This document shows positions 1,226-54,050 of a stretch of 64,000 nt of DNA, piece by piece (within the stretch, counting starts at the first letter, position 1; every line of letters begins with the position of its first letter). A program made the position numbers and the translations under genes. The stretch spans positions 12,442 to 76,441 of the forward strand of contig JAWAFD010000003.1 of NCBI GenBank assembly GCA_038890745.1, read 5' to 3'. This DNA is from Candidatus Anstonellales archaeon (GTDB taxonomy: Archaea > Micrarchaeota > Micrarchaeia > Anstonellales > J096). The notes below the pieces were generated by a model. That model made no database searches. It was not told the DNA's origin and saw nothing but the letters and a program-made list of their open reading frames with translations.

Positions 1226-1550
1226 ATTCCAGTTGATCCTGCTGGAGGGTACTGCTATCGGAATCCGACTAAGGCATGCAAGTCTACGCCTGCACTTGTA
1301 GGCGTGGCAGACGGCTGAGTAACACGTGGTCAACCTCCCCTGAAGACCGGAACAACCTCGGGAAACTGAGGCTAATTCCGGATATGCCATCACTGCTGGA
1401 ACGCTTGATGGTTGAAAAGGAGGGCGAATTGGAGCCTTTCCGCTTCAGGACGGGACCGCGGGGGATTAGGTTGTTGGCGGGGTAACGGCCCACCAAGCCG
1501 ATAATCCCTAGGGGCCATGGGAGTGGGAGCCCCCAGAGGGACACTGAGAC

Positions 1551-1589
1551 AAACGCTGTTTGTTCAGGTTTTTCGGAAGGGACAAACAG
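1551..1589 (+). repeat. 38-nt palindromic hairpin insertion in 16S (copy 1), at the position equivalent to E. coli ~322
   Basis: aacgctgtttgttcaggtttttcggaagggacaaacag splits the conserved ACTGAGACA/CGGTCCA block. 10-bp inverted repeat cgctgtttgt/acaaacagcg. Confidence 0.7.
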
Positions 1590-2157
1590 CGGTCCAAGGG
1601 TCCCAGCCCTACGGGGTGCAGCAGCCGCGAAACCTCCGCAATGCGCGCAAGCGTGACGGGGGGATTCCGAGTGGTGTTGGCTCTTGCTAACACCTTTTGC
1701 CAAGTGTACAAACACCTGTTCGGTGGTGTAAAGCTTGGCGAATAAGGGTGTGGGCAAGACCGGTGGCAGCCGCCGCGGTAACACCGGCGCCTCAAGTGGT
1801 ACCCACGAATATTGGGTCTAAAGCGCCCGTAGCCGGCCGTGCAAGTCCACTGTGAAATGTTGGGGCTTAACTCCAACGCGTGCAGTGGATACTGCATGGC
1901 TTGGGAGCGGGGGAGGGTAGAGGTACGCCCGGGGTAGCGGTAAAATGCGTTGAGCCTGGGCGGACCCCCAGTGGCGAAGGCGTCTACCCAAAACGCGTCC
2001 GACGGTGAGGGGCGAAAGCTGGGGGAGCGAAGGGGATTAGATACCCCCGTAGTCCCAGCTGTAAATGATGCCAACTAGATGCGACTGCATCTTTGAGATG
2101 CAGTAGCGTCGTAGCGAAGGCGTTAAGTTGGCCACCTGGGGAGTACGATCGCAAGAT

Positions 2158-2200
<43 letters not shown>

Positions 2201-2565
2201 TTAACCATAAGGAATATAAACACAACCGACTACAACCATTCATGCCATCTATAAGCGGTGATGAAGAATCCTTCAAGAAACATTTCCGTATTTTGGCGGA
2301 AGAGAGCAACGGATTTAGAAAGTTAAACGCTAAACTACGTTGTAAATAAAAGGATTGTTATTGAATGCACACAGGCTACAAATAAAATAAAATAAAAGCA
2401 GAGTCTTTGGGTTTCCGTATATCCAAACTAAAAAAAGTTAATCCTAGGATTATCGCAATAGCTGTTATTCCTAGAGGGGTAAATAAGGGATTTTTGCGTC
2501 GGCTTGAGGATTTTGATCACATCGTTTTTGATGATGAGTTGAGTCGGTTGGAATTCCTTCTGGTT
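2201..2565 (+). other. Intron-like insertion 1 in 16S (~365 nt, AT-rich, no intact ORF)
   Basis: Sits between the conserved ...gcaccacaaggggtgga and gctacggttcaatcgga (GGAGCCTGCGGTTTAATTGGA equivalent). AT-rich, unlike the flanking rRNA. Only short ORFs that cross the boundaries. Confidence 0.6.
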
Positions 2566-2709
2566 CCACAGGCTACGGTTCAATCGGATACAACGCCGAA
2601 CATCTCACCAGAGGCGACGGCAGAATGAAGGTCAGGCTAAAGACCTTGCCCGACAAGCCGAGAGGTGTTGCATGGCCATCGTCAGCTCGTGGTGTGAACT
2701 GTCCGGTTA

Positions 2710-2748
2710 ACGCTGTTTGTTCAGGTTTTTCGGAGAGGACAAACAGCG
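2710..2748 (+). repeat. 38-nt palindromic hairpin insertion in 16S (copy 2), at the position equivalent to E. coli ~1092
   Basis: cgctgtttgttcaggtttttcggagaggacaaacagcg inserted in the GTTAAGTC loop before GGCAACGAGCG. Identical to copy 1 except for 1 nt. Confidence 0.7.
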
Positions 2749-2868
2749 GTCGAAAGTCCGGCAACGAGCGAGACCCATGCCCTTAGTTGCTAACTCTATC
2801 TCCGGATAGGGTGCACTCTAAGGGGACTGCCCGCGTTAAGTGGGAGGAAGGAGTGGGCGACGGTAGAT

Positions 2869-3662
2869 AGATGGCCTGGTCCGTAATCTTTTAAACACTA
2901 GCTCCGTAAATTTAATATGCCAAAAATGAAAATAACAAAAAGAGAGCTGCTTAATTTACTAGAAAAAGTTCATAACATAACCGAAGAAGATCTATCTAAT
3001 AATCCCAAGTACCTGCTTTTGCTACGATTGAATCTTGGTATGTCTCAAAATGAATTCGAGAAGTTTCTAGGAATAAGTAAAAATTCATACAAATATGAGA
3101 CAGGAAAAATAAAACGCATGAGTAAAAGGACAGCAAAAAAATTTTTGGCAAGACTCCCAAACAGCATAGATAGGAAGAAAGTTATAAAGAGCTATAAACA
3201 CTTCAAAGCAGAATCTAAAGGTTGGATGATGGTGCATTCTGATTCAGAGCAGGCGCTGAGAGGAAGACAAAAAGGGGCAATCAATTCGATGAAAAAACGT
3301 TGTACTATTCAAGAAAAAGAAATAACAAATTATCTCTTAAAAAAAGCAGTCCCTTTCAAAAGAAACTACGCACTAAACAATAGATGCGTTGTAGATTTCA
3401 TAATTGAACATGCAAATGTTATAATCGAATGTAAGCGACTATCTACGCAAAATAGGCGGGAGCAAACGAAGAAAATACGCGAACTCGCATATCAAGGATA
3501 CAAAGCTAAGTTTCTTAATCCAAAATTTGCCTTGATTGCACTAATTGAAACACAACTACCTTTAACAGCTGCTGATTATGAAGAATTGATGGGTCCATTC
3601 AATAAAGTATTTAATCGGATGGACGAACTATTTTCTTTTTTGGACCAGACCATTTAACCGCA
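2869..3662 (+). other. Intron-like insertion 2 in 16S (~794 nt) carrying an ORF
   Basis: Sits between conserved gggcgacggtag and gtccgtatggcccgaatcctctgggctacacgcg (position equivalent to ~1205-1213). AT-rich. Contains ORF 2917..3657. Confidence 0.6.
2917..3657 (+). CDS. rRNA-intron-encoded protein: N-terminal HTH (XRE-like) plus C-terminal PD-(D/E)xK / Vsr-DUF559-like endonuclease domain (putative homing endonuclease)
   Basis: 246 aa. HTH-like LLRLNLGMSQNEFEKFLGISKNSY. C-terminal nuclease motif VVDFIIEHANVIIECK (D..E.K) followed by a basic helix. Not LAGLIDADG. Confidence 0.5.
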   Translation: MPKMKITKRELLNLLEKVHNITEEDLSNNPKYLLLLRLNLGMSQNEFEKFLGISKNSYKYETGKIKRMSKRTAKKFLARLPNSIDRKKVIKSYKHFKAESKGWMMVHSDSEQALRGRQKGAINSMKKRCTIQEKEITNYLLKKAVPFKRNYALNNRCVVDFIIEHANVIIECKRLSTQNRREQTKKIRELAYQGYKAKFLNPKFALIALIETQLPLTAADYEELMGPFNKVFNRMDELFSFLDQTI

Positions 3663-3770
3663 GTCCGTATGGCCCGAATCCTCTGGGCTACACGCGGCAT
3701 ACAATGGGCGGCACAACGGGTTGCCACTCCGAAAGGAGGAGCTAATCCCTGAAAACCGTCCCTTAGTTCA

Positions 3771-3809
<39 letters not shown>

Positions 3810-3843
3810 CTAGTAATCGCGGGTCACTATCCCGCGGTGAATG

Positions 3844-3875
<32 letters not shown>

Positions 3876-4064
3876 GTCACCCAAGTGTGGTTTCGGTGAG
3901 GCCCTCCTTTTTGGGAGGCTCGAACCGGGGCTACGCGAGGGGGGCTAAGTCGTAACAAGGTATCCGTAGGGGAACCTGCGGATAGATCACCTCCAAAAAG
4001 GAAATGCAAGGGGCCCTTCTCTGAATAAACCTTGAAGCCTGCCAAAATTTCTTTTTTTATATTC

Positions 4065-8159: not shown

Positions 8160-9632
8160 CTATATGATTACTCTTACCCATCTATATGGGGTTTTTTCTA
8201 TATCCTCTTTGCTTTTTTCTCCAAACTTCTCAAATCTTTTTAAAAGTTGAAAAACTAAAACCTCATCAAAAGGTTTTAGACGAATTTCGCTTCTATTTAC
8301 TTCTACCTTTTTTCCGATTATTTCAGATATATGCTGAGCTGTTGCTTCGTGACCAATCACTGAAATAAATTTATTTTTCGCTAAAATATTTATTGCTTCT
8401 TCATCGCTTATCACTTTGAAGTATGCATTCCCGCTGGGATATTTGTTTATATCGAACATATTCAATGAAAAAGAAGATGCTAGATAAATGTTTTTTTCAC
8501 GCTGTTTATTTTTTATTAGCTCTGCTATTCTTCTACATTCTTCCTCACATTTCTTTATATATTTTTCGATCTTTTTGGGACTTATGTTTTGCGAGTTTTG
8601 GGTTTTCCTCCCTGTTCCGGCATGCGCTAAGTAATTTCTCCAATTTTGTATATTCCCAAATATTCCCCTCTCCTTTGTTTCAAGTTTTCCTAATAACTTA
8701 GTAACCATCTCTCTATCATCTTTTTTGTTTCCGTCCATTCCTAATTCTTTACATATTTTCGTTATGTACGCTTCTTCTAGGAATATAACTGCATCACGCA
8801 GATGCTTACGTTTATTATGATATTCCGAAGTGAGCAACATCGCTTCTTCGTTGCTTTTTGCCTCCCCTTCCTTTTCCATAAATGGCTTAAATTCTTTTTT
8901 TAGTTTTTTGATTAACGCTGAGACTATATATTTTTGAATACCATCTAATCCTTCTAGGCTTTCATCTAATTCACCGATAGTTCCAGTTTCATAAATATTT
9001 TTCAAAAACTCACGTATCTCATTTATTTTCCCCATAAATTTTGTATTGCTCTTTCTAAATAGTTCTTTTGCATCCTTGCTTATCTCTTCTATTTTTTGAG
9101 GGTCCAGCGTATTTACAGCCTCTTCCATATCCGCTACAATCTTGAATATTAAAGAGTATTTTTCTAAATTGATAAGTTTACCTTTTTTTGTTTTTTCGTT
9201 AAAGAACTGATAAAAATATTCTATACTGGCTTCCTTCTCTTTTTCAATTATTTGCAATGCAAGTAGTACCAATGTTGTAGTATACTTAAATCCCGTAGTG
9301 GTATCAAAATGTATGGTGGATCTCTCTTCTTCTTTTATTTCCTTGCTAAGATTTACAAGAACATTTTGAAAAAATGCGTTCTGGTCTTCTATATTTTGTA
9401 TTTTTATTTTTTTTATTTTTGAACTATCAATTCTTCCCTTTAAATTTTCTAATTCATTTTCAGCTTCTTCTGTTGGGATTATTGCAATTATTTTATCATA
9501 GCTAAACTCGTTCTTTAGTATTTCTAATGGTATCATTATATTTCTGTATTTTTTTCCCATGTATTCGACTTCTTCTGCTTCTTTATAGTTTTTTCCAACA
9601 TTCATTACATACATTCTCATACAAACCACCAT
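8160..9632 (-). CDS. csx1: Csx1/Csm6-family CARF-HEPN ribonuclease with C-terminal DUF1874 (Crn2/AcrIII-1-like ring nuclease) fusion
   Basis: 490 aa, last gene of the type III operon. HEPN R-x4-H motif WRNYLAHAGTG at ~aa 330. N-terminal alpha/beta CARF-like region. C-terminal ~120 aa (NIYLASSFSLNMF...SVIGHEATAQHI...NRSEIRLK) resembles DUF1874 cA4 ring nucleases as I recall them. Confidence 0.55.
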   Translation of the reverse strand: MVVCMRMYVMNVGKNYKEAEEVEYMGKKYRNIMIPLEILKNEFSYDKIIAIIPTEEAENELENLKGRIDSSKIKKIKIQNIEDQNAFFQNVLVNLSKEIKEEERSTIHFDTTTGFKYTTTLVLLALQIIEKEKEASIEYFYQFFNEKTKKGKLINLEKYSLIFKIVADMEEAVNTLDPQKIEEISKDAKELFRKSNTKFMGKINEIREFLKNIYETGTIGELDESLEGLDGIQKYIVSALIKKLKKEFKPFMEKEGEAKSNEEAMLLTSEYHNKRKHLRDAVIFLEEAYITKICKELGMDGNKKDDREMVTKLLGKLETKERGIFGNIQNWRNYLAHAGTGRKTQNSQNISPKKIEKYIKKCEEECRRIAELIKNKQREKNIYLASSFSLNMFDINKYPSGNAYFKVISDEEAINILAKNKFISVIGHEATAQHISEIIGKKVEVNRSEIRLKPFDEVLVFQLLKRFEKFGEKSKEDIEKTPYRWVRVII

Positions 9633-9633
9633 T

Positions 9634-10518
9634 TCAATATGATGTTATATTTACCCTTCCCATCCCAGCAGTTGTTAGCTTACCTATCCCTCTGTAATTA
9701 GAATATCCTGCCAACAACCCTAATAATTTTTTTGTTTCTTTGGGTAGCGAAGTTATAGAATAAGTTATACTCCCCATTATCCCACTTATTCTCTCTTTTT
9801 TATTTCTTTTTTCTGACCATCGATCAATGGATGTATATTTTTTTATTTTGTTTACGCAAATAGCAGCTTTTTCCAATTTTTTCTTAAAATCTACAAAGTT
9901 TATTTCTGGTTTATATGAATAGTAAAAGAAAGAAGTATTGTGAAAAGAACGTGCCATGGTCATTCCTATACTTTGAAGGGATGGCTCTGTGACCATTGAG
10001 TTCTCGAACCTTAATAGTGTGGGGGTTAAAAAATTAAAACGAATTCTTTCTTTTAATTGAATGCTTCTTACGAATTCTTCTTTAATATTGACTATTTTTG
10101 CACCTACAGACCCATAACCTTTTTTTCTACCTTTTCCTATACTATTTACTTTTTCAATAGCTTTTTTTAGGTGATTTAAAAAATTATTTCCTTTGCCGAA
10201 TAACATAATTTTGAAATTTATCTCTTCATCAACAAAATATGTTTTCTTAGGTTCTAATGGAGGACTAATGGAGTAGGGTTTAGGTATCTGCATTCTATGT
10301 AATGGTTTTTTTACATCCCTTTGCTCTAGTTCGAATAAATATCCATAAGCACATCCTTCAATTCTATTACAACTTTTGCAGTTTTTATTTTTTCCCATAA
10401 GACAAGAATTTTCTCTCAACTTTTGGCCTATTGCACCTCTTATACTGAATCCTTTAAACTCATTTAGATGTACTGGGGTTTTTGGAATAAATTTGGCTTC
10501 TATTACAGTTATCTTCAT
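9634..10518 (-). CDS. cas6: Cas6 crRNA endoribonuclease (probable), with a zinc-finger-like Cys cluster
   Basis: 294 aa. C-terminal glycine-rich loop GIGKLTTAGMG (GxGxxxxxGxG) ~12 aa from the C-terminus. CxxC..CxxxC cluster CKSCNRIEGC. Position between csm5 and csx1. Confidence 0.5.
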   Translation of the reverse strand: MKITVIEAKFIPKTPVHLNEFKGFSIRGAIGQKLRENSCLMGKNKNCKSCNRIEGCAYGYLFELEQRDVKKPLHRMQIPKPYSISPPLEPKKTYFVDEEINFKIMLFGKGNNFLNHLKKAIEKVNSIGKGRKKGYGSVGAKIVNIKEEFVRSIQLKERIRFNFLTPTLLRFENSMVTEPSLQSIGMTMARSFHNTSFFYYSYKPEINFVDFKKKLEKAAICVNKIKKYTSIDRWSEKRNKKERISGIMGSITYSITSLPKETKKLLGLLAGYSNYRGIGKLTTAGMGRVNITSY

Positions 10519-11405
10519 TTTGGTTCAACCCTTACCCACCCAAATGGATAATAAATTTCATTTATTTTTGTAATTTTTATTGTTGTTGAGTTTTCAGAAA
10601 ATTTTCCTTTACCAATTCTTATTAGAATATTATTTTTGTTTTCCTGTTCTATTTTTTTGTAGAATTCCTCTAGTCCATTTAAAGCTTTAATTGTTTCACT
10701 ACGCAGATCTATGATTTTGTTTTTAAAATTCCTTATCCAGTTTAATTCCCCTTTAATCAAATTGCTATTAATATCTTTAATTTTTTCTAATATTTTTTCG
10801 TTTTCTAAATATCGGACCTCTTTCTCATGATAAAATTCGTTTTTTATTATCTCTGCATTAATTTTCTTTCCTGGAGGGATTACCTCAATATAATTATATT
10901 TGATTAGCCTGTTTATTTTTTTCATGCTTAAACTATATATTCTGGATATAGTTAGACTGTCTTTTTCGAGCATTACATCTCTAAATATTATGTATGACAA
11001 GGTAGGTTTATTGCTGACTTTGTCTATGTGATGTACTGAGCCTGGGCCAGTGTAGGACACGAAAGTGCCCTTTATAGATGATCCTGGAATATAAGGTTTG
11101 CCATCTATATTTATAAATTCATTTATTACAATATCATCTTTGTTAGCTATGTCTTCAACTATTTTTATCCCACCACTACTTAAAGCATATTTTTCACTAA
11201 TTTCTCTTAATTTTTTTATTTTTTCTTTGTGATCCTTTTTCTCTTTAAATTCTTTTATTATTTTTTTTAGGTCATCTATTGTATAGCGATTTAGATCTAC
11301 GTCAACTAAATAACCATTTTTTATTACGCAATCAAAAGGGTAATGTTTTTCACTACCATTACCAATATGAATTGGAGACAATGTGTAGAACAAATATTCT
11401 TTCAT
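10515..11405 (-). CDS. csm5: Csm5 (Cas7-family RAMP, type III-A)
   Basis: 296 aa. RAMP G-rich segment YIPGSSIKGTF. Gene order after csm4. 4-nt overlaps with neighbours. Confidence 0.65.
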   Translation of the reverse strand: MKEYLFYTLSPIHIGNGSEKHYPFDCVIKNGYLVDVDLNRYTIDDLKKIIKEFKEKKDHKEKIKKLREISEKYALSSGGIKIVEDIANKDDIVINEFINIDGKPYIPGSSIKGTFVSYTGPGSVHHIDKVSNKPTLSYIIFRDVMLEKDSLTISRIYSLSMKKINRLIKYNYIEVIPPGKKINAEIIKNEFYHEKEVRYLENEKILEKIKDINSNLIKGELNWIRNFKNKIIDLRSETIKALNGLEEFYKKIEQENKNNILIRIGKGKFSENSTTIKITKINEIYYPFGWVRVEPK

Positions 11406-12319
11406 GATCTCACCTCTGGATCTATTTTAAATAAACTATCAAGATCGGCTTTAAGGTATAGTTTTATTGTTCTTCCGTTGAAAATCTTTTCTTCACTATC
11501 TAACTTTATTATTTTGCCATTTGATGGTATATCACTAAAAATTCCGCCCGAAGGGTAGTATAAGAATGAGATACCGGATCTTATTTTTTGATCGCCTTTT
11601 TCTGACAAGAAACTATTATATTTCTCTATACGAGAAAATATGAATTCACTGTTTTCCTCCGGGATGTAATCCGAAAGGTTTATGAAAAATTTTTCTTTTT
11701 TGGTGAGATATTCTTTATTGAATTCAGATAATATGTTCGACGGGTCTTTAAATACTAATCTGCTTGCTCCAACTGATTTATCAGCCCCCATTCCATAAGA
11801 TGACATTTTTAATAGAGCGTTCTCTATTATCTCTTTGTTTTTTTCTTCTACGGAGATTAAAAGAAAGGCATTTTTGACTATTGTTATATCATAATAAAAC
11901 ATATTCCTTTCCCTTATATAATTCCCTATTCTTCTTATCTTTTTTTGTTCTTCCTTTTTTTTGTTTGTGCGTTCTGTTAAACTATTCATTATCCTGTCTT
12001 TGATGAGGTCATCTGTTACCTCTTTGTCTGTGTCTTTTATCAGAACCTCTGTTTCTTTAAGCTCCTTTCTTAGTTTCTTTCTTATTTCTTTGTTTTGTAT
12101 GAATCCCACTGCGTTTTGTAATCTTACACAGAATCCAAATTCAACATTTTTCATAATTCTACTAACTGCAAATTCTTTATCTTCTAAAAGTTTTTTTCCA
12201 TCTTCCCCGAAAAAATCTATAGCAGTTTTCAGTATGGCTCCTGAAATTTGCATGCTTGTTAATAATCCTGACGAAGTGTTGTATCTTATTTCATCAAATT
12301 CTGCTTTATATATTGTCAA
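11402..12319 (-). CDS. csm4: Csm4 (Cas5-family RAMP, type III-A)
   Basis: 305 aa. Position between csm3 and csm5. G-rich SFLYYPSGGIFSD. Size typical of Csm4. Confidence 0.55.
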   Translation of the reverse strand: MTIYKAEFDEIRYNTSSGLLTSMQISGAILKTAIDFFGEDGKKLLEDKEFAVSRIMKNVEFGFCVRLQNAVGFIQNKEIRKKLRKELKETEVLIKDTDKEVTDDLIKDRIMNSLTERTNKKKEEQKKIRRIGNYIRERNMFYYDITIVKNAFLLISVEEKNKEIIENALLKMSSYGMGADKSVGASRLVFKDPSNILSEFNKEYLTKKEKFFINLSDYIPEENSEFIFSRIEKYNSFLSEKGDQKIRSGISFLYYPSGGIFSDIPSNGKIIKLDSEEKIFNGRTIKLYLKADLDSLFKIDPEVRS

Positions 12320-12330
12320 ATGCCCCCCTC

Positions 12331-12954
12331 CTATATTTTATTTAACTCATCAAGGTTGTTTATTTCCAATTTAACTTTTCCGTACCCTCTTGTTCCGCTT
12401 CCGCCCAAATAATTGCTATTGAGAAGCTCTACCATTTTTTCTATTTTATTTTTTAATTCACTTGGAGGTATAATGTATTTTCCATCATTTTTTTCTAGTA
12501 TAACTACCATCTCGAAATCAAATTTTGTTCCGGGTTTTACTCTTTCAGAGCTTCTTAGGTCTTTTGCTTTTCCTGTATTCCGGTCTATTCTGTTTTCTAT
12601 CTTTACTTCTATGAAATCATTTGGATCTCGATTTTTCTGTTCACGACTTACAAAGGAATCTCTAAATATTAAAATTCCTTGTTTCTCAGGACTTCCAAAA
12701 AGTAATTCAATCTCATCCTTTTCTTTACCCTCTGTAATAATTTTACCTTTTTCATTATATTTTATGCCAATTAATTTTTCGTATAAGCATCTAATTTTTC
12801 CCTTTAGAGAGCTTCCCGGTATATATGGATATCCTTCTGGATCTTTTATTACAGGGTTATCTATTCCTGCGATCTCATACGTCCCTTCGCCTCCTATGTG
12901 CAATCCACTCAATACTGTTATTTCTCCTTTCAAAACCTTCGTTTCAAATCCCAT
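12331..12954 (-). CDS. csm3: Csm3 (Cas7 backbone subunit, type III-A)
   Basis: 207 aa. VLSGLHIGGEG and YIPGSSLKGKIR G-rich loop typical of Csm3. Confidence 0.75.
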   Translation of the reverse strand: MGFETKVLKGEITVLSGLHIGGEGTYEIAGIDNPVIKDPEGYPYIPGSSLKGKIRCLYEKLIGIKYNEKGKIITEGKEKDEIELLFGSPEKQGILIFRDSFVSREQKNRDPNDFIEVKIENRIDRNTGKAKDLRSSERVKPGTKFDFEMVVILEKNDGKYIIPPSELKNKIEKMVELLNSNYLGGSGTRGYGKVKLEINNLDELNKI

Positions 12955-12965
12955 ATTCTCACCTC

Positions 12966-13388
12966 TTACTTTCCTTTTATGTTAGCAAGCATTAGTGTTG
13001 ATGCATACTCAAGCGGGAGTATATAATTCTCCTCTATTGATTCTTCTTTGCCTAATTTTTCACCTATTGATTCAAATATATCTGCATAAAATTCTGCAAT
13101 AACTTTTACTTTTTTATCAGTATTTTTTTTGGATGCTATGTATCTAAATTTTGCTGCTGTTAGCAGTAAGTCCTTCTCAGCCATTTTTCTTTTTATTCCA
13201 CTTATTGACTTAAATAGCTCTATAGTTTTACTTCTAGGAATTTCGTATAATTGTGCTTTTATTTTTTCGATCGCGTTTTTTATTTTGTACATTTTATCCT
13301 TAGCGTTGTCGCTGCTCAGTATAGTATCCTTTATACTTCTCAAATCCAGAGGTTTCTCCTCATCTTTACGTCCATTCATTTCAATCAC
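12966..13388 (-). CDS. csm2: Csm2 small subunit (Cas11, type III-A)
   Basis: 140 aa, helical, immediately downstream of cas10 with an 8-nt overlap. Size and position canonical. Confidence 0.6.
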   Translation of the reverse strand: MIEMNGRKDEEKPLDLRSIKDTILSSDNAKDKMYKIKNAIEKIKAQLYEIPRSKTIELFKSISGIKRKMAEKDLLLTAAKFRYIASKKNTDKKVKVIAEFYADIFESIGEKLGKEESIEENYILPLEYASTLMLANIKGK

Positions 13389-15738
13389 CTCTTTTTAGAT
13401 CATAAAAATCATTTCCTTCCCCTAATTTAAATTTTGAAAATAATAATGCGGTGGAAAGACTCTGTAAAAAGGTCTCTTTCTCTATAGTTTCCTTTATACT
13501 GTTATAATCTTCGGCATCCTTTTGACTTATTGATTTTTTGTGTCTTTCTATTATGTAATCCATTTTTGCTTTTGAAAATAGTTTTTTTATTTGTCTATCT
13601 ATTTCTTTATACTTTTTGCTAATGGATATTCCTGGATCCAAATATACACTCATTAGATTATACAAGAGGCTTCTAGAGATATTTTTGTTCTCCTTCATTA
13701 TATCTATAACCTTAAACAAATCTTCGTATTCATCATTTCCAATAACATTCCTATCACCAGGTACGAAAGAAATGTAGGTTGCATTTTTTGTCCTACTGTT
13801 GTTTTTCTTATATCTTTTTGCTTCTTTAAGTCCTATCTCTCCAATTTCACTTAGTTCTCTTACTGGGAATCTGTGATGCTCTACTATTATACTTGCAGAA
13901 TATGTTATTCCATATTTATCATCTTCTGAATGGAAAATTTTGTAGAAATTTTCCTTAAAATTTTTCATAAAGACTAGTGCGTAATCATATCTTGTTATAA
14001 GGGTTATATCATCGCCTCCCGCATATAAGAGATAAAACTTTTTATTATTTTTTTCTTTTTCATGTTTTTTTTCGCCTATTGTTTCATTTATTCCAGAATT
14101 TAAGCATTCTATCATTGATTTTTCCATTAAAGTTATAAATTCAAGTGTAAGAGAAAAATCTTTGCAACATTTTTCTACTTTGTCTCCAAGCCCATCTATA
14201 TCAATTTTAATGAAAGCTAGATATGGCGTATTCTTCTTTCTTTCTTCAACTTCTATGATCTCATCTATTTTGTCATTTATCCATAATGGTATCAAATGAT
14301 AATCGACCCCAAGATTATTTTTTATGTAATCTATAATATTAAACTGTTCTGAAACTTTACCTACTTTTAAAAATAGGTCGACAAATCCATTATTTATCTT
14401 TAGATTTTTGATTTTATCTATATCCATAACGAATATCTTAAATCTTCCAAATTCGAATACTGGTTCTTCATCGATAATATTTCTTGTTTTTTCGGTATAT
14501 AGTATTCCGGATATCATACGCTCGTAACTACATTTTGTTCCTAATTTTTCCATGCTTTTGCATGCTTCACAACAATCTTTATTACCCGTATAAATCTCAC
14601 CGCACCTATCACATTTTTTTCCATTTTTTATTGTTTGATCATCTATTTTATATGTATAACTGTTAAATCCTGCCTTTTCGAAAATTATTGTGTTGTAGTT
14701 TTTTGGTTCGATATCCTTCTTTTGATCTTTTAGGTTTATCGTTAATTTTACTATCCCAAAAGATGCTGAAAGCGGGAAATACCCCAATTCTATTAATTTT
14801 TTGTTAAACTGTTCCAATTGATTTTTTATTTTTTTTGATGGGTCTTCATCAGACAAAAAGGCAAACTTTCCAGAAGAGAGAAACAATAATGCAGCAATGT
14901 TTAATTCAAGTTCTTTTAATATCTCTAACGATAGTAATCTAGTTATAGCGTATATAAATATTGATCTGCCCCTCATTATTTTTGATGATACTTCCCCTCT
15001 ATAGTCTTTTTTTAAGAATTTTGTTATAAACCGTTGGATGCCATTAAGTTTTACAAGACAATAATATATTTCTGTTTTTTCGTCCCCTATTTTTATATTT
15101 TTTTTCTTAAGTATGTAAGCTAGTGATGATGATGCTTTTGAATGAGAATAAATTGAGTAGACCGGACATTCATGCTGTTTGTAAGATGGTACTGCATAAG
15201 TGTAGTCTCGGAGTATAGTGCTTATGTTTTGGTATTGATATTCAAAATTTTCCTTGTTTATGTTTTTTAATGCTTCTACTAATTCCATTTCAAATTTTTT
15301 ACTTTGTGAGCTTTCATGTGCTATTTCGATTTTTTCATGTTCCCTTACACTATATGGTGCTATTTCATCTAGTGTAAATTTTGTACATAATCTATCGCAT
15401 TCAAGCGTATCCACAAAGTAAGCAGGCAGTAAAGTTTTTCCTTCTTCATCATCTTCTTCTTTTTCTGGTCTCATGCTTGCTGAGATCTGGTCTCCTAATT
15501 TTACATACATTATTTGTTCCTCATCGATTTCATTGTGATGTTTTTCTACTAGGCAGGCTACAGAAGAAAGTTCCGGTGCATTTTTTTCTATGAATTCTGC
15601 ACCAATTTCTGCATGCTTTCTTCTACCTTCTATATTTTTCAATATTGTTTTATATCTCTTTTGAAAAGATTTTCCTAAATCGTGAAGAAGTGCAGCAAGA
15701 ATAATTTCTTGTTCTGAATTTATACTACTTTTCATCAT
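13381..15738 (-). CDS. cas10: Cas10/Csm1 with N-terminal HD nuclease domain, treble-clef zinc finger and GGDD cyclase (Palm) motif
   Basis: 785 aa. HD motif LLHDLGK...KHH. CDRCGEIY...CCEACKS zinc finger. YLLYAGGDDITLI (GGDD) cOA-synthase motif intact. Confidence 0.85.
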   Translation of the reverse strand: MMKSSINSEQEIILAALLHDLGKSFQKRYKTILKNIEGRRKHAEIGAEFIEKNAPELSSVACLVEKHHNEIDEEQIMYVKLGDQISASMRPEKEEDDEEGKTLLPAYFVDTLECDRLCTKFTLDEIAPYSVREHEKIEIAHESSQSKKFEMELVEALKNINKENFEYQYQNISTILRDYTYAVPSYKQHECPVYSIYSHSKASSSLAYILKKKNIKIGDEKTEIYYCLVKLNGIQRFITKFLKKDYRGEVSSKIMRGRSIFIYAITRLLSLEILKELELNIAALLFLSSGKFAFLSDEDPSKKIKNQLEQFNKKLIELGYFPLSASFGIVKLTINLKDQKKDIEPKNYNTIIFEKAGFNSYTYKIDDQTIKNGKKCDRCGEIYTGNKDCCEACKSMEKLGTKCSYERMISGILYTEKTRNIIDEEPVFEFGRFKIFVMDIDKIKNLKINNGFVDLFLKVGKVSEQFNIIDYIKNNLGVDYHLIPLWINDKIDEIIEVEERKKNTPYLAFIKIDIDGLGDKVEKCCKDFSLTLEFITLMEKSMIECLNSGINETIGEKKHEKEKNNKKFYLLYAGGDDITLITRYDYALVFMKNFKENFYKIFHSEDDKYGITYSASIIVEHHRFPVRELSEIGEIGLKEAKRYKKNNSRTKNATYISFVPGDRNVIGNDEYEDLFKVIDIMKENKNISRSLLYNLMSVYLDPGISISKKYKEIDRQIKKLFSKAKMDYIIERHKKSISQKDAEDYNSIKETIEKETFLQSLSTALLFSKFKLGEGNDFYDLKRGD

Positions 15739-15795
15739 TACCCCATGTTGAAATTGACTACAATAAGTTTTTAAATTTTTTTTCTGATGATTCTA

Positions 15796-16494
15796 CTAAC
15801 TTCTTTTTGTTTTTTCTTCTACCAATTTAAGCAACTTTTTTTGGTATTCGTCCATGAAATAAAAAACCTCTTTACCTTTTTTGATACTGTTTATCCACCC
15901 TTGATTGATCATTTTCTTTGTTGCTATGAATATAGTTTGTTTTTTTCTACCCATTCTTTTTGTTAATTCTGAAAGTGAAATGGGTTCTCTACTATTCGCT
16001 ATTTCATTTAAGATATTCGTGTAAGTGATGGTTTTTCTTTTATGTTTGGTTTGACTGAGGAAAAAGAAATATGCTGAAATTGGAAGTATTTGTGTTTGTT
16101 TTTTATATGGTGTATGTTTGATTAATATTTTTTTATTTTCAACTATGTGGCGTTTCTCGAACACATTTTGCGAAACTGATAGTATAAGTGCAAAGAATAT
16201 CTCTTTCGATGCCCCCGTCATATCCACGATAATTTCGTCTGCTGTTTCCGTTAACAATTTATCAAATTTATACTTCATATTTAAAAAATCATAGAAGTCT
16301 GCTTCTTCTTCTGATGTTTCTGTGATTTTGAGTAGGTTTATGTATTCTTTTTTTATTTTTTCCCACACGCTCTTAGAGTCTAATGAGTAATATATACTTA
16401 TAGTATCTGGTTTTATATATTTCATAATATAATTCATAGACTCTTTTATCGCTTCTTCGTTTTTTCCTACAAAAATAATAGCTTTTTTTCGCAT
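15796..16494 (-). CDS. csa3: Csa3-like CARF + winged-HTH transcriptional regulator
   Basis: 232 aa. N-terminal Rossmann-like CARF with VDMTGASKE (D-x-T-G-x-x-K) ligand-pocket motif. C-terminal wHTH (ISLSELTKRMGRKKQTIFIATKKMINQGWI). Confidence 0.6.
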   Translation of the reverse strand: MRKKAIIFVGKNEEAIKESMNYIMKYIKPDTISIYYSLDSKSVWEKIKKEYINLLKITETSEEEADFYDFLNMKYKFDKLLTETADEIIVDMTGASKEIFFALILSVSQNVFEKRHIVENKKILIKHTPYKKQTQILPISAYFFFLSQTKHKRKTITYTNILNEIANSREPISLSELTKRMGRKKQTIFIATKKMINQGWINSIKKGKEVFYFMDEYQKKLLKLVEEKTKRS

Positions 16495-16592
16495 GCTTTA
16501 TTTTATTTTTGGAAATATTTTTAAATGTTTCGTTTAATCATCAGACAAAAAATTTAAAAATAACCTATTTTTAATTATAATCAGGTGAAAAA
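16495..16592. promoter_or_regulatory. Divergent promoter region between csa3-like and the cas4-like/cas1/cas2 operon; contains the aaaaatttaaaaataac motif shared with the CRISPR leader
   Basis: AT-rich 98-nt intergenic region. The 17-nt BRE/TATA-like motif at 16548-16564 is identical to 18315-18331 in the CRISPR leader. Confidence 0.45.
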
Positions 16593-17102
16593 ATGAATGT
16601 AAAATGTAGTGAGATAAGATTGTTTGTAATAAATAGGAAGGCCTGGTTTCTGAGCCTTCTTGGAATGGGTAAGAAGTATCTTCCCATGGGAAGAGCAAAG
16701 CACGAGGCAATATTCTCGGATACAGCAGAAGATAACCACAAAGTAGTGTTTGATACAAAAGATAGATTCGAAGTAGAGATGGTTAAGAAGCTTATCTTTT
16801 CATTCGGAAAACCTAAACAAGCAGAGAAAAAAATTAACCCAGTTTATAAACTGATAGGAAAAGCAGATGGTTTCATAAATGGCTTGCCTTTTGAAGTCAA
16901 ATTCTGCGAAAAAGAAAACCAAGGGGATTTTTTGCAAGCTGCTTCTTATGCACTCCTTTACAGTACCAGCAAGTCATATCTTTTCTATCCTTCTAGGTAT
17001 TTTGTAGTAGATCCTAATGAATATATCGACAGGATAGCAGATGTTGTAGACAAGATACTAGCAGTGAAGGAGGCGCTTTTCTATGATACTTATATGCGAT
17101 GA
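16593..17102 (+). CDS. cas4: Cas4-like RecB-fold nuclease lacking the Fe-S cysteine cluster
   Basis: 169 aa, directly upstream of cas1. Motifs GKADG (motif II Asp), FEVKF (E-x-K), QAASY (QxxxY). Only one Cys in the C-terminal part, so no 4-Cys cluster. Confidence 0.45.
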   Translation: MNVKCSEIRLFVINRKAWFLSLLGMGKKYLPMGRAKHEAIFSDTAEDNHKVVFDTKDRFEVEMVKKLIFSFGKPKQAEKKINPVYKLIGKADGFINGLPFEVKFCEKENQGDFLQAASYALLYSTSKSYLFYPSRYFVVDPNEYIDRIADVVDKILAVKEALFYDTYMR

Positions 17103-17970
17103 GTTCGGGACATGGATAGGCAAAAAGGGTGAAAGAATCATACTCAAAAAGGGAGGTGATGTCATAAAAGAGGTATCTATGAGAAAAATCGAGGGGATTA
17201 TGGTGGGGAAAGGTGTTTCATTATCTTCTGATTTCTTAGTTATGCTTTCTAAAAACAACATCCCCGTCTTCTTCTCATCTGACCTTTCCTCACCATTTAT
17301 TTTTTCTTCTTCTTCCCTTTCCTTGTCAAATCTTCGTTATGCTCAATCTCATATTTCCGATGATAAGAAAAAGACATTCGTAAAAAACATACTGTTCTCT
17401 AAAATTTTTAATCAATACTCATTGGCTCTTCATCTGTTTGGTGAAGAATTATCTTATGATGATTTTTATCCTTCTGTAGAGTATGAGAGTAATTTTGCTA
17501 AGAGATATTGGTCTTGTGTTAGGAAACATATCCCAATGTTTGTATCCAGGGATAGAAAAAGTGAAGATAACGTAAACCTTTCGCTTAATTATGGCTATGG
17601 TATTCTTCGTATCAGTATTTTAAAATCTGTCCTTGCTTCAGGATTGGACCCTTATTTTGGCATGATCCATCACTTAAAGGACTATTCTACTTCATTTGTC
17701 TTTGATGTAATGGAACCGTTTAGACCTATTGTGGACTATGCAGTTTTTCTATGCAAAGATGATTTAGATAAAGACTTTAACTCAGAATTGAAATATATTA
17801 TTGCTAAAAAAGTTTTATCAGTTTTTAAATCTAACTTTTTTTATAAAACTAAGAGAACTTCTCTTGATAGAATATTCCTTCTTTTTTGTTATGAGATTGG
17901 ACATTTTTTTAGAGATGAAGAAAAAAATGATTTTGCAACATTCCGGGTATTCAGATGGCCAAGATTATAG
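17083..17970 (+). CDS. cas1: Cas1 integrase
   Basis: 295 aa. Typical Cas1 N-terminus (MILICDEFGTWIGKKGERIILKKGG...) and size. Followed by cas2 with overlap. Confidence 0.85.
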   Translation: MILICDEFGTWIGKKGERIILKKGGDVIKEVSMRKIEGIMVGKGVSLSSDFLVMLSKNNIPVFFSSDLSSPFIFSSSSLSLSNLRYAQSHISDDKKKTFVKNILFSKIFNQYSLALHLFGEELSYDDFYPSVEYESNFAKRYWSCVRKHIPMFVSRDRKSEDNVNLSLNYGYGILRISILKSVLASGLDPYFGMIHHLKDYSTSFVFDVMEPFRPIVDYAVFLCKDDLDKDFNSELKYIIAKKVLSVFKSNFFYKTKRTSLDRIFLLFCYEIGHFFRDEEKNDFATFRVFRWPRL

Positions 17971-18230
17971 TTTTCTATGACATCAAGGATGATAGAAGAA
18001 GGTATGGCTTTGCTGATTTTTTGAAAAACATAGGTTTAGAGAGGATTCAGTTCAGTGGTTTTATGGGAGAGATAAGAGAGAAGGATTTTAATGAACTTAT
18101 TTCTGGTATTCCTAAAAAAATAAATGACGCAGAAGATACTGTTCATCTTGTTCTGCTTTCTTCTTTTTCAGAGGTAAAGTGTTTTGGAAGAGGGTGGATC
18201 CCTTCAGATCCGGACATTCTTATTTTTTGA
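17955..18230 (+). CDS. cas2: Cas2
   Basis: 91 aa. MAKIIVFYDIKDDRRRYGFADFLKNIG... typical Cas2. Adjacent to leader and array. Confidence 0.85.
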   Translation: MAKIIVFYDIKDDRRRYGFADFLKNIGLERIQFSGFMGEIREKDFNELISGIPKKINDAEDTVHLVLLSSFSEVKCFGRGWIPSDPDILIF

Positions 18231-33986: not shown

Positions 33987-34877
33987 CTAACCTATCTTTG
34001 AATAAAAACTCCTATACCCTGCTTTTTTTATCGCAGAGGATATTTTCTTTGCTTTTTCCTCATTTTCAGCAAGCGCAATAGCGCATCCTCCTCCACCAGC
34101 GCCCGTAAGCTTTGCACCGAGCGCCCCATTTTTATTAGCAACGGAGATTATTTCTTCCAGCTCCTTTGTTGAAACACCTATCTCTCTCAAAAGAATTTGA
34201 TTTTCATCCATAAGCTTCCCAACTTTCTTTAAGTCTCCTTTTCCAAGTGCATCCAAAGCATTTTTGGATATTTGAGCATATTTTTTCAAAACATTCGAAA
34301 ACCATTTTTCGTTCTCCTCCTTTCTCTTTCTCACCATCCCAACAAGCTCTTTTGTAATCCCCTGCTTCCCGCTTATCCCAATCACTATATAAAACGGTTT
34401 TTTTATTCTCAGCCGCTTTATTACATTCCCGCCCTCTCTTTTTGTGAATACAATAACCCCCCCGTAGGTCGCTGCGGTGTTGTCTATTCCAGAAGGGGTC
34501 CCATGAAATATTCTTTCACTTTCATATGCTGCATCACATATCTTTTTTTCGCTTTTCCCTAGGTCAAACTCATTATCTATCGCTCTTGCGATCGCAACCG
34601 CAAGCGCTGCAGAGCTTCCCAACCCTCCGCCCGCTGGAAGCTCAGAATGCACATTTTTTATCCTCACTCCCGCATCCACACCGAGCGCCCTTTTTATGGC
34701 TTTCAATGATTCCATTCTTTCTCTTTTGTATTCGTTTGTGGCCACCTCATCCTCATCGGACTTTTCAACTTCTACTTCAATTCCCTTTTCCAGCCCAGCA
34801 ACTATCCCGGTTTTTCCGTATACTACAAAATGCTCACCGAAAAGTATTGTCTTTCCAAACCCCTTTCCCTTCGCCAT
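33987..34877 (-). CDS. mvk: Mevalonate kinase (GHMP kinase family)
   Basis: 296 aa. N-terminal GKTILFGEHFVVYG. GHMP ATP-binding motif LPAGGGLGSSAALAVA. Confidence 0.7.
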   Translation of the reverse strand: MAKGKGFGKTILFGEHFVVYGKTGIVAGLEKGIEVEVEKSDEDEVATNEYKRERMESLKAIKRALGVDAGVRIKNVHSELPAGGGLGSSAALAVAIARAIDNEFDLGKSEKKICDAAYESERIFHGTPSGIDNTAATYGGVIVFTKREGGNVIKRLRIKKPFYIVIGISGKQGITKELVGMVRKRKEENEKWFSNVLKKYAQISKNALDALGKGDLKKVGKLMDENQILLREIGVSTKELEEIISVANKNGALGAKLTGAGGGGCAIALAENEEKAKKISSAIKKAGYRSFYSKIG

Positions 34878-44999: not shown

Positions 45000-45326
45000 A
45001 TGATGCCGAACATGGACCCAAAGCAGATGGCAAAACTGATGAAGCAGATGGGAATAAACACAAGCCAGATAGATGCTAAAGAGGTTATAATAGAAACAGA
45101 TGAGAAAAGAATAGTAATAGAAAATCCTCAGGTTATAGAAATCTCCATGCAGGGTCAGAAGAGTTATCAGATTTCTGGAAAAGTAAAAGAAGAAGAAAAA
45201 CTTTTTTCAGAAGAAGATATAAATCTCGTTATCGAGCAGGCAAACTGCACCCGCGAGGAAGCAGTAAAAGCGCTCAAGGAAACAAAAGGAGATATTGCTG
45301 AGGCTATAATGAAATTTCAAAAATAA
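45000..45326 (+). CDS. nac: Nascent polypeptide-associated complex protein (archaeal NAC alpha) with C-terminal UBA domain
   Basis: 108 aa. MMPNMDPKQMAKLMKQMGI N-terminus. NAC domain. C-terminal UBA-like EEDINLVIEQANCTREEAVKALKETKGDIAEAI. Confidence 0.8.
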   Translation: MMPNMDPKQMAKLMKQMGINTSQIDAKEVIIETDEKRIVIENPQVIEISMQGQKSYQISGKVKEEEKLFSEEDINLVIEQANCTREEAVKALKETKGDIAEAIMKFQK

Positions 45327-45344
45327 AAATTATAGAATAGTTTA

Positions 45345-45850
45345 AGTACCCCCTGGTCTAATTTTTGCTTAGATAAGATAGGGGGGGTAGAAGCGTGAGG
45401 GGGGAATAAGAATGTGCTTAAGTCCCCCCTTGGCTGGTGGAAGAGGCAGGTGATGCGGCGAAACAAGTGCGACCCAGAAGTTTAGGTGGGTTGGGTCGCA
45501 CCGAAGCCCTTCGGGTTGTTTCACCGCATCAGTGATGCGGCGAAACAAGTGCGACCCAGAAGTTTAGGTGGGTTGGGTCGCACCGAAGCCCTTCGGGTTG
45601 TTTCACCACATCAGGGGGTCTGAGAAAAAGTTAAAGTACCCCCTGGTCTAACTTTTGCTTAGATAAGATAGGGGGGGTAGAAGCGTGAGGGGGGAATAAG
45701 AATATGCTTAAGTCCCCCCTTGGCTGGTGGAAGAGGCAGGGGGTCTGAGAAAAAGTTAAAGTACCCCCTAGTCTAACTTTTGCTTAGATAAGATAGGGGG
45801 TGGAAGAGGCAGGGGGTCTGAGAAAAAGTTAAAGTACCCCCTGGTCTCAT
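45345..45850. repeat. Complex interspersed/tandem repeat block of three G/C-rich structured units (A ~105 nt x2 plus a truncated copy; B 82 nt x2 tandem; C ~36 nt x3)
   Basis: Unit A at 45345-45450 and 45635-45740 (2 mismatches). Unit B at 45451-45532 and 45533-45614 (1 mismatch). Unit C (ggggtctgagaaaaagttaaagtaccccctggtcta) at 45615-45650, 45741-45775, 45811-45846. Internally deleted copy of A at 45766-45810. Confidence 0.85.
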
Positions 45851-45861
45851 AAAAGCTCGTA

Positions 45862-45953
45862 TGGGCCTGCTGGGATTTGAACCCAGGACCTTTCGATTTC
45901 TGTTTTATACCCAATATCAGTCGAACGCTCTGACCAGGCTGAGCTACAGGCCC
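45862..45953 (-). tRNA. tRNA-Ile (anticodon GAT) with a 17-nt canonical-position intron
   Basis: Reverse complement: GGGCCTG TA GCTC AGCCTGGTCA GAGC G TTCGA CTGATA [TTGGGTATAAAACAGAA] A TCGAA AGGTC CTGGG TTCAAAT CCCAG CAGGCCC A. Intron between positions 37/38. Confidence 0.8.
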
Positions 45954-46106
45954 TTTAATAGCTTTCTTTATTCCCTGCAAAATATTTTAAAATCCTCTAC
46001 CTTACCATGATGTAAGCGAGAATAAGTACAATGCCAACAAGCCCAATGTAAAAAACAACCTCTTCTGGCATGATTTGATTTTTAAACACTTGTTTTTATT
46101 AACCTT

Positions 46107-53003: not shown

Positions 53004-53746
53004 TAGAGATAGATGAGGCGAAGGTTCTCAGCTGGTTTTTAAAACCTGAAAAAATTTCAAACAGAATAAAATTTTCTAATTTTAGGATAGATAGCAACAA
53101 AGAGGTTATGCTGTTTGATGAGAAGAAAAACACAACAGACAACCTTACGCAAAAATTGGGCGTTAAAGGAAAGATGTTCCTTTCGCATGAAGAGGAGGAG
53201 CGAGCCTCTGTTTTCTTTTTTCAGGAGGGGGAGGACGCATGCAAGCGTATTGATTTCTTTTTTCCGAAGGAAGGTGGAATGGCCATGGATGTTGCTGACT
53301 ATTCCTTGGGTTTCAAGCTTTCAAAAAATTTTTCAGCGCACGCAAAAGAAAGATCGATGATAGTTGTTGATACAGAAAACAAAAAATACATATTCATAAA
53401 TTCGCGCGGGGAGAGCTATTCCTCTGATATTGAGATAGAAAAGAATGCGTTTTGTTTTGTGATGGATGAGAACCGCGCAGCGATCGTGGATAGGAAACGA
53501 CTTTACGTAATAGTAGGTGGAAGCAGAGGAATGTACGACCTGGCAGATGTGGAGAAAGAAAATGGCTATCCGCTCTCAAAACCGGTATTTGGAGTAGGTG
53601 AGGCAGAGGGGTTTGAGTGGTTTGCATTAAGCGATGAGAGATGGAATTCTGCATGCATCCTTGTTTCAGTTGGGGATAGAGAAACCCTTGGGTTTATGAT
53701 TTATGAATTCAAAAATAAAAAGTTCATTCCGGGAGATGTGAAATAA
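53000..53746 (+). CDS. Hypothetical protein
   Basis: 248 aa, translationally coupled to the deaminase (4-nt overlap). No recognisable motif. Confidence 0.4.
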   Translation: MIEIDEAKVLSWFLKPEKISNRIKFSNFRIDSNKEVMLFDEKKNTTDNLTQKLGVKGKMFLSHEEEERASVFFFQEGEDACKRIDFFFPKEGGMAMDVADYSLGFKLSKNFSAHAKERSMIVVDTENKKYIFINSRGESYSSDIEIEKNAFCFVMDENRAAIVDRKRLYVIVGGSRGMYDLADVEKENGYPLSKPVFGVGEAEGFEWFALSDERWNSACILVSVGDRETLGFMIYEFKNKKFIPGDVK

Positions 53747-54050
53747 TTTTTTTTGGTTCAACAACAGTTATTGTTATATCGCCCCGGCTTACATAATAAA
53801 CATCTTTTCCTTTTTCCGGTTTTGCATACACGCCAGTAAGCCAGTAGAATTCTGCATGCATCCTTGTTTCAGTTGGGGATAGAGAAACCCTTGGGTTTAT
53901 GATTTATGAATTCAAAAATAAAAAGTTCATTCCGGGAGATGTGAAATAATTTTTTTTGGTTCAACAACAGTTATTGTTATATCGCCCCGGCTTACATAAT
54001 AAACATCTTTTCCTTTTTCCGGTTTTGCATACACGCCAGTAAGCCAGTAG
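53645..54050. repeat. Perfect ~203-bp tandem direct duplication spanning the convergent 3' ends of CDS 53000..53746 and surE
   Basis: gaattctgcatgcatccttgtttcagttggggatagag...ccagtaagccagtag occurs at 53645-53847 and again at 53848-54050 with no mismatches seen. Confidence 0.85.

Follow-up and report, generated by a model that had tools for sequence, protein, structure and literature searches.

What kind of sequence fills the spacer between nac and tRNA-Ile in the genome of a Micrarchaeota (DPANN) archaeon? Within the 64,000-nt stretch of DNA analysed here (the window), positions 45336–45860 hold a G/C-rich block of near-identical repeats, which fills this spacer between two genes in convergent 3′–3′ arrangement, with the stop codon of nac (+ strand) on one side and the 3′ end of tRNA-Ile (− strand) on the other. 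A first-pass annotation had described three interleaved repeat units, A, B and C, and proposed that they might be structured RNAs, a mobile element or the scar of an integration site. With moderate confidence, we read the block as a strain-hypervariable, minisatellite-like locus of the variable-number tandem repeat (VNTR) type between convergent genes, together with a small palindromic insertion, B. Loci of this kind, intergenic VNTRs or mosaic clusters of palindromic repeats, here joined by a small palindromic insertion, are known; the sequences themselves are new.

A tandem array of local origin

The block and its borders are laid out as follows (positions are those of the window; no strand is assigned to the repeats).

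45000..45326, + strand: nac (nascent polypeptide-associated complex), the final gene of an S15–S3Ae–NAC run and the left border of the block; open reading frame (ORF), with Pfam NAC and UBA_HYPK matches on the identical protein
45327..45359, + strand: constant nac 3′ flank, aaaaattatagaatagtttaagtaCCCCCtggtct, found in all haplotypes by haplotype decomposition
45336..45450: U1, first full unit, whose 5′ part is the native nac flank; reference copy of repeat family D1
45386..45437: 52-nt hairpin sub-element in U1, GGtagaagcgtgaG6-aataagaatgtgcttaagt-C6ttggctgg, from sequence coordinates
45450..45531: B1, 82-nt nested palindrome with three helices; from repeat search, folds and Tandem Repeats Finder (TRF), and scored at 113 bits on the − strand by covariance model R1
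45532..45613: B2, second head-to-tail copy of B; from repeat search, covariance model and comparison with contig L048
45614..45740: U2, full unit of ~125 nt, 97% identical to U1; repeat family D1
45676..45727: 52-nt hairpin sub-element in U2, from sequence coordinates and fold
45741..45813: U3, short unit without the 52-nt sub-element; from sequence, repeat search and haplotype decomposition
45814..45848: U4, partial unit, G5-tctgagaaaaagttaaagta-C5-tggtct, abutting the constant tRNA trailer cataaaagctcgta
45862..45953, − strand: tRNA-Ile(GAT) with an 18-nt intron; ARAGORN, and Rfam tRNA at 64.8 bits

Both neighbours had been named correctly in the first-pass annotation, as the Pfam NAC and UBA matches, ARAGORN and Rfam agree. 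Its order of units, A-B-B-C-A-C-A(truncated)-C, is also correct, and is described more simply as a ~125-nt unit U (equal to C plus A) in tandem, with two full copies, one copy carrying a 52-nt deletion and one partial copy, and with B inserted. Patterns of 30–35 nt taken from the units occur two to three times in the block, as compared with no occurrence in 100 shuffles. A 20-nt direct repeat, GTT(T/A)AAGTACCCCCT(A/G)GTCT, borders the block and every unit, and each U contains T4–5 runs on both strands. The 52-nt sub-element is found in U1 and U2 and not in U3, where both ends of the deletion lie in G-runs with GGT(A/G)GAAG microhomology.

The array is of local origin. Directly past the nac stop codon, the constant sequence ttatagaatagtttaagcaCCCCCtggtct represents the repeated module tctgagaataagttaaagcaCCCCCtagtct in diverged form, and a T5 run comes next at 45363–45367. 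This homology between the nac 3′ flank and the module indicates that the array grew from native sequence and is not a foreign insert; the flank is the likely seed of the array. In composition, the block has a GC content of 50.7% (56–57% in B); the window as a whole has 39.6%, and the other non-ORF DNA 36.7%. The GC contrast, previously called sharp, is therefore real but only moderate, with 1.7% of 525-nt windows being equally GC-rich. Runs of at least five G or C number 14 in the block, a density of 26.7 per kb as compared with 1.0 per kb elsewhere. G7, G6 and C6 tracts are present, of which the complementary G7 and C6 had been noted before.

Each full U also carries GCTGGTGG, an octamer with the same sequence as the Chi site of E. 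coli (45433–45440 and 45723–45730), within a G-rich segment that resembles minisatellite core motifs; elsewhere in the window the octamer occurs once, on the reverse strand at 34093. As RecBCD is not expected in archaea, the identity with Chi is probably a coincidence.

Spacer content differs in every haplotype

Assemblies of the same species were identified by exact-protein look-ups and comprise five metagenome-assembled genomes (MAGs) from NCBI and several Logan assemblies. Their flanks are 98.9–100% identical over 2.7 kb per side (contigs L001, L002, L003/L049, L004/L048, L051 and L052), and the content of the spacer is different in every haplotype, with four structures.

Haplotype W (window, L004 + L048, L051): U1-B1-B2-U2-U3-U4; ~535 nt in the window
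Haplotype H2 (L002): one short unit, collinear with the last unit of W; 121 nt
Haplotype H1 (L001): only the first module and a few segments in common with W; 121 nt
Haplotype H3 (L003 + L049, L052): a small G6/C6 hairpin, at least four 79-nt units, at least two ~88-nt units and further modules; >600 nt in L003 + L049

Despite their equal length, the spacers of H1 and H2 are unlike in content, H1 having a different filling of ~95 nt. By comparison, U3 of the window is collinear with the single unit of H2, and the 79-nt unit of H3 is the reverse complement of an H2-like unit with the same 11-nt linker, tagtagagtaa. The copies within the block are 97–99% identical, which, together with the entirely different arrays between near-identical flanks, bears out the earlier proposal of recent amplification.

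When cut at runs of at least five G or C, the haplotypes resolve into a small shared vocabulary of segments that varies in number, order and orientation. The module has the pattern G-run, 11-nt linker (tRgWagNgNNa), G-run, A/T-rich segment of ~20 nt ending in (g/c)tt(a/t)aag(t/c)a, C-run, t(g/a)gtct and a tail of ~21 nt. Every junction of a duplication, deletion, inversion or insertion lies inside a G5–7 or C5–7 run.

Beyond the species, a scan of species-representative genomes for NAC recovered Candidatus Micrarchaeota MAGs only, with a best identity of 81–82%, indicating that the window species is not itself among the representative genomes. In the related species represented by contig L007 (NAC 81% identical), the spacer is 83 nt long and contains no repeats. 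There, tRNA-Ile with its TTTTAAAATATT promoter box (10402–10521) lies between the same two genes in the opposite orientation, so that the tRNA gene has been inverted in one of the two lineages. The tRNA-Ile intron of L007 is much longer (~45 nt by eye), and ARAGORN made no call for this gene.

The block is not the only tandem duplication of the window. At 53644–54050, two copies of 203 bp with 100% identity cover the 3′ ends of a further pair of convergent genes (the + gene ends at 53746 and the − gene at 53927) and the spacer between them, and the same-species short-read contigs L053 and L055 end inside this duplication. This second case hints that convergent gene junctions in this genome are generally prone to tandem duplication.

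B is a nested palindrome unrelated to the surrounding repeats

B is present in the window as two head-to-tail copies (TRF: period 82 nt, 2.0 copies, 98% matches), which differ at one base, G>A in B2 (caccAcatca); the L048 copy has G at this position. Its outer 16-bp helix is interrupted by one mismatch, its 10-bp helix (gtgcgaccca/tgggtcgcac) is perfect and has a 15-nt loop, and a hairpin of 4–5 bp, ccgaa-gccc-ttcgg, is the third. The first-pass annotation had described nested perfect helices, which is right for the 10-bp helix but not for the outer one, and had placed the small hairpin, which is present, at cgaag-ccc-ttcgg. The terminal inverted repeats, tgatgcggcgaaacaa and ttgtttcaccgcatca, pair at 15 of 16 positions; the mismatch is a C·A on the + strand and a G·U on the − strand, and B2 has a second position of the same sort.

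The insertion site of B is the G-run at the junction of U1 and U2, where it breaks an otherwise continuous ...ggcaGGGGGtctgag; elsewhere, the junction that B breaks reads ...gaggcaGGGGGtctgag.... At most an ambiguous 1–3 nt (G or CAG) is repeated at the ends of B, the insertion point being within the G-run. B is missing from three of the four haplotypes (L001, L002 and L003/L049) and from L007. In local alignments against all other parts of all haplotypes, B scores no higher than shuffled B, and it is thus not a rearranged piece of U; an origin from U or from other haplotype sequence is ruled out. Compared by eye with the consensus features, B does not fit a C/D-box or H/ACA RNA, a bulge–helix–bulge intron, an integron attC site or a palindrome-associated transposable element of the IS200/IS605 type.

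Taken together, B is best read as a putative small non-autonomous palindromic DNA element, which may work like a MITE (a miniature inverted-repeat transposable element), an enterobacterial repetitive intergenic consensus (ERIC) element or a Correia-type element. We do not file it as a MITE because multiple dispersed copies were not found in anything searched.

A model for the turnover of the array

The haplotypes show that a module derived from the native nac 3′ flank has, in different strains, been tandem-duplicated, partly deleted, and inverted and then re-amplified. We propose that the G/C runs supply the microhomology at which strands slip and mispair or recombine unequally, resulting in tandem gain or loss of units, and that switching from a G-run to a C-run on the opposite strand could produce inversions such as those in H3. 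In addition, template switching within or between strands during replication, which is documented to create and perfect hairpin stems (PMC8794818), might have created or perfected the hairpins of the array. With the runs acting as microhomologies, rearrangement at this locus would be much faster than point mutation; we infer this mutational mechanism at the runs. Finally, in the haplotype of the window, B, an unrelated and almost perfect 82-nt palindrome, has entered the G-run where two units meet and has itself been duplicated head to tail.

The nac run and tRNA-Ile are presumably highly expressed. Any function of the G5...C5 hairpins with their T4–5 runs, for example in 3′-end formation of both convergent transcripts, would seem to tolerate wholesale change. 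If transcribed, B is predicted to fold as RNA, and nothing marks it as a conserved RNA gene.

Four points weigh against a minisatellite with an inserted palindrome. First, no second genomic copy of B was found in a copy search that covered 64 kb of the genome and the syntenic pieces of other strains, and the mobility of B is inferred from its presence/absence polymorphism only. Second, the G/C runs are kept in all modules, while the segments between them are ~55–75% identical (by eye), and the retained runs or hairpins could be selected for some function. Third, the imperfect positions of B (one in B1 and an extra one in B2) are G·U on the − strand, which is the strand of tRNA-Ile, and C·A on the + strand. 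This fits an RNA-level constraint on a − strand transcript, and, with two positions, is weak evidence. Fourth, a GC-enriched block in an AT-rich genome is a classic signature of structured RNA in AT-rich thermophiles.

Alternative explanations

The block may alternatively be a nest of independent mini-elements, in which the U modules, the 52-nt hairpin and B are all MITE-like or repetitive extragenic palindrome (REP)-like sequences that target G-runs and are moved by a transposase acting in trans. We consider this unlikely. The presence/absence polymorphism of B, of the 52-nt hairpin (U2 versus U3) and of whole units is consistent with it, as are the occurrence of units in both orientations, the 16-bp terminal inverted repeats of B and the location of all insertions in G or C runs. 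However, the further copies of A, B and C for which the first-pass annotation had proposed a search were not found: no other U or B copies are present in the 64-kb window (patterns with ≤3 mismatches, blastn at word size 7, and R1 with filters off), and the 273 kb of related loci contain no module copies outside the locus. Five patterns (B core, B terminal inverted repeats, U core, module a and the 52-nt hairpin) had no matches in viral contigs, the U core pattern had none in a collection of 185,579 genomes, and the whole block had none in plasmid and phage collections (blastn in distant mode). Six-frame peptides of B and U were likewise not matched among 5.8 billion predicted proteins.

Furthermore, no integrase, transposase, reverse transcriptase or orc1/cdc6, and no REP-associated tyrosine transposase (RAYT) or Y1 transposase, is found in the precomputed Pfam matches of the neighbours or among 10 further scanned ORFs. 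No clear target-site duplication is visible, and the homology of U to the constant nac flank favours local duplication. The MITE-like character suggested earlier is plausible for B only, which is unrelated to the surrounding repeats and inserted in a G-run, and even for B multiple dispersed copies were not found.

A pattern made of the 10-bp B stem with a variable loop, itself palindromic, retrieved 25 unrelated hairpins from metagenome contigs and no B. Among metagenome contigs, a hairpin of the form GTGCGACCCACT-N6-8-AGTGGGTCGCACC recurs on many unrelated short contigs (CXWK.../OEIV...) from a few metagenomes, including L023, L026, L027, L031, L032, L034, L035, L039 and L045. It looks like a dispersed REP-like palindrome of another organism, and shares only the 10-bp stem with B.

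A second alternative, which we regard as rather improbable, is that B, and perhaps the G5-loop-C5 hairpins, are small structured non-coding RNAs (ncRNAs) processed into stable small RNAs (sRNAs). Their transcription would either run on behind tRNA-Ile on the − strand, as a trailer or polycistron, or start from TATA-like boxes in U, TACTTTAAC, which nearly match the TTTAAA(A/C) promoter box of window genes. B folds into a three-helix Y shape with z-scores against shuffled sequence of −5.2 (+ strand) and −8.4 (− strand), and the 52-nt sub-element (U2 copy), with its G6/C6 hairpin, reaches −3.4 (+) and −4.0 (−). The GC content of B (56–57% against a background of 37–40%) and the G·U identity of both its imperfect positions on the − strand point in the same direction.

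By comparison, full U units have z-scores of −1.1 to −2.2 on both strands, no better than dinucleotide shuffles, so that the selection for RNA structure that had been invoked for the whole block is not borne out for A and C. For B, such selection is unproven: it folds well, but 29–30 of the 30 modelled pairs are Watson–Crick, and such near-perfect pairing is more typical of a DNA palindrome than of a conserved RNA stem; its absence from three of the four same-species haplotypes and from L007 also argues against a conserved RNA. Archaeal transcription tends to terminate at T-runs, and the T4–5 runs on both strands of every U would tend to stop transcription before the inner units.

At gathering thresholds, Rfam 15 finds only tRNA and small-subunit (SSU) rRNA over the window, and at E≤10 over the block the best match other than tRNA or rRNA is mir-1262, at 23.9 bits as compared with a gathering score of 70. 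Model R1, which combines B1 and B2 with their three-helix fold and was run with filters off, recovers only B1 and B2 in the 64-kb window and only the syntenic partial B of L048 in the 273 kb of related loci. The three known copies of B differ at one base, and no diverged copy was found in these sequences, so that there are no compensatory changes from which covariation could be read. A family of small structured ncRNAs has gained no positive evidence. As a separate matter, a G-quadruplex was rejected, the spacing of the tracts being, by eye, too long for a canonical three-tetrad structure.

A more far-reaching proposal is that the modules are substrates of a dedicated Micrarchaeota recombination or diversification system, a cassette shuffler downstream of tRNA-Ile, and/or that B founds a new DPANN family of mobile palindromes or of sRNAs expressed from the tRNA-Ile strand. 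This appears doubtful to us; what allows for it is the conservation of the runs between diverged modules and the fact that the only imperfections of B are G·U on the − strand.

Two further explanations are highly improbable. In the first, the block would consist of att-site scars (attL/attR arrays) left at tRNA-Ile by a virus or plasmid that integrated and excised repeatedly. The block does adjoin a tRNA gene, the 20-nt direct repeat borders it and each of its units, and the tRNA gene is inverted relative to L007. Against this, the repeats and the tRNA have no sequence in common, the ~6 kb to each side contain neither an integrase nor foreign genes, the segments between direct repeats are only 52–105 nt, the viral, phage and plasmid collections gave no matches, and no spacer of the CRISPR array of the window matches the block. 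As the first module is moreover the native nac flank, the integration-site scar suggested in the first-pass annotation is largely refuted.

In the second, for which we see just as little chance, the repeats would be protein-binding iterons, for example origin recognition boxes (ORBs) for Orc1/Cdc6 that include a G-string (TGGAA-N6-GGGGG in tggtggaagaggcaGGGGGtc), or arrays of operators. The G-runs are conserved between diverged modules, and tggtggaagaggcaGGGGGtc bears what we take to be a loose resemblance to the GGAAA-N-GGGG part of the archaeal ORB. Measured against the ORB consensus, however, the block contains only the half-site-like TGGAA-N6-GGGGG and no dyad-symmetric ORB half-site, and no orc1/cdc6 gene is among the neighbours. 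All copies within a haplotype run in the same direction and not as inverted pairs around an A/T-rich unwinding element, B interrupts one putative G-string, and number, order and orientation vary between ~99% identical strains, unlike an origin. The block is also not a CRISPR array: its would-be spacers are themselves repeated, the 37-nt repeat of the genuine array is unrelated, and there is no spacer match.

Least credible of all is an assembly artefact, such as a repeat that was collapsed or expanded, or contigs joined into a chimera; same-strain short-read assemblies do break within the block and the B–B junction is seen in the window only, but the independent assembly GCA_038891555.1 gives U1 to the start of B (L004) and B-U2-U3-U4-tRNA (L048), with flanks 100% and 99.96% identical to the window, and the Logan contig L051 matches the right end of the block base for base, so that both parts are reproduced and the artefact that the first-pass annotation had allowed for is contradicted. 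The MAG contigs are broken only inside B, ending 5 nt into it and resuming 8 nt into it. A unique 82-nt sequence would not be expected to break a contig, and the breaks are what a repeated B would give there too.

Comparison with known repeat systems

Structural comparison with known repeats places the array closest to the prokaryotic VNTRs or minisatellites used in multiple-locus VNTR analysis (MLVA) typing. In both, head-to-tail non-coding units of tens to ~125 nt are near-identical within a strain, very close strains have arrays of different copy number and unit composition, and slippage or unequal recombination is plausible. The defining features of a VNTR, a tandem unit of at least 10 nt and a polymorphic structure between conserved flanks, are found here. 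The differences are that the present locus is a mosaic of 125-, 73-, 79-, 88- and 82-nt units, that one haplotype contains an inverted block and that G5–7/C5–7 runs occur throughout. To our knowledge, a mosaic array punctuated by G/C runs in this way has not been described in DPANN archaea.

The bacterial interspersed mosaic elements (BIMEs) and REPs of enterobacteria likewise consist of G/C-rich palindromic units with short linkers, which form strain-variable mosaic clusters at gene 3′ ends and between convergent genes. These elements, however, number hundreds of dispersed copies, take alternating orientations inside a cluster and come with RAYT transposases. By comparison, no copy lies outside the present locus in 64 kb, and the units of the window all point in the same direction.

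Small palindromic elements of the MITE-like class, such as ERIC/intergenic repeat units (IRU), Correia/NEMIS and RUP (reviewed in PMC3184786), resemble B in several respects: B is 82 nt long with 16-bp terminal inverted repeats, forms an imperfect palindrome over its whole length, is foldable as RNA or single-stranded DNA, is intergenic and shows presence/absence polymorphism. It differs in that no further copies, clear target-site duplication or cognate insertion sequence were found for it in the searches described above, and a perfect head-to-tail dimer is unusual for MITEs. In the case of template-switch hairpins (PMC8794818), the near-perfect stems, the inverted segments and the junctions at short inverted microhomologies (G-run versus C-run) are shared with the array. 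Template switching, however, copies nearby sequence, whereas B has no detectable local source; it therefore fits the inversions and hairpins of U better than the origin of B.

Neighbouring genes and other features of the window

The genes around the block are of a housekeeping kind (Ham1, S15, S3Ae, NAC, a metallophosphoesterase, a nucleoside phosphorylase and an ECF-type ABC transporter). The interval from tRNA-Ile to the metallophosphoesterase gene contains an unannotated micro-ORF.

45997–46071, − strand: micro-ORF of 24 codons, MPEEVVFYIGLVGIVLILAYIMVR

Its counterpart in L007 (~10537–10611), MPEEIIFYIGLVGVVLILAYIMVR, has conservative changes only, with the DNA ~76% identical, and on this basis the ORF probably encodes a real membrane micro-protein.

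About 15 genes of the window have a promoter box, TTTAAA(A/C), often after A/T runs and ~25–35 nt upstream of the start codon (for example at 16494, 16593, 28330, 34877, 34929 and 46107). This short distance to the start codons indicates that leaders are mostly short or absent. In addition, bidirectional palindromic promoter boxes are common to several divergent gene pairs.

Two further loci of the window are of separate interest. One, which is notable given the small DPANN genome, is a CRISPR-Cas locus that resembles type III-A.

8163–18230: type III-A-like CRISPR-Cas locus
8163–9632: 490-aa ORF beside the Cas genes, with a STIV B116-like domain
9634–12954: RAMP-like ORFs
13384–15738, − strand: Cas10/Csm1 with an HD domain
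17083–17967, + strand: Cas1
17955–18230: probable Cas2
18443–~22400: CRISPR array (~4 kb) with the 37-nt repeat ATTGAACATGTTTACTCTATGTAAAGAGGACTGAGAC

The other is a match to archaeal SSU rRNA at 1226–3995, which covers 2770 nt for a model of 1478 positions and thus indicates a 16S gene with ~1.3 kb of insertions, probably introns. A 246-aa ORF inside this gene (2917–3654) has a weak HTH_3 match only, and may be a homing-endonuclease-like gene.

Significance

The nac/tRNA-Ile spacer offers a high-resolution strain marker for this hot-spring Micrarchaeota population, with at least four haplotypes among ~99% identical genomes, and the array explains why short-read MAGs of the species always break between these two genes. 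It also calls for caution in a wider sense, in that GC-rich repeats that fold well should not be taken for RNA genes until their conservation within the population and across species has been checked. The locus is a natural example of duplication, deletion and inversion mediated by homopolymer runs in a reduced DPANN genome and, together with the 203-bp duplication, suggests that convergent 3′–3′ junctions are hotspots of tandem duplication in this organism. Should B turn out to be expressed or mobile, it would be among the first small palindromic elements described in DPANN archaea.

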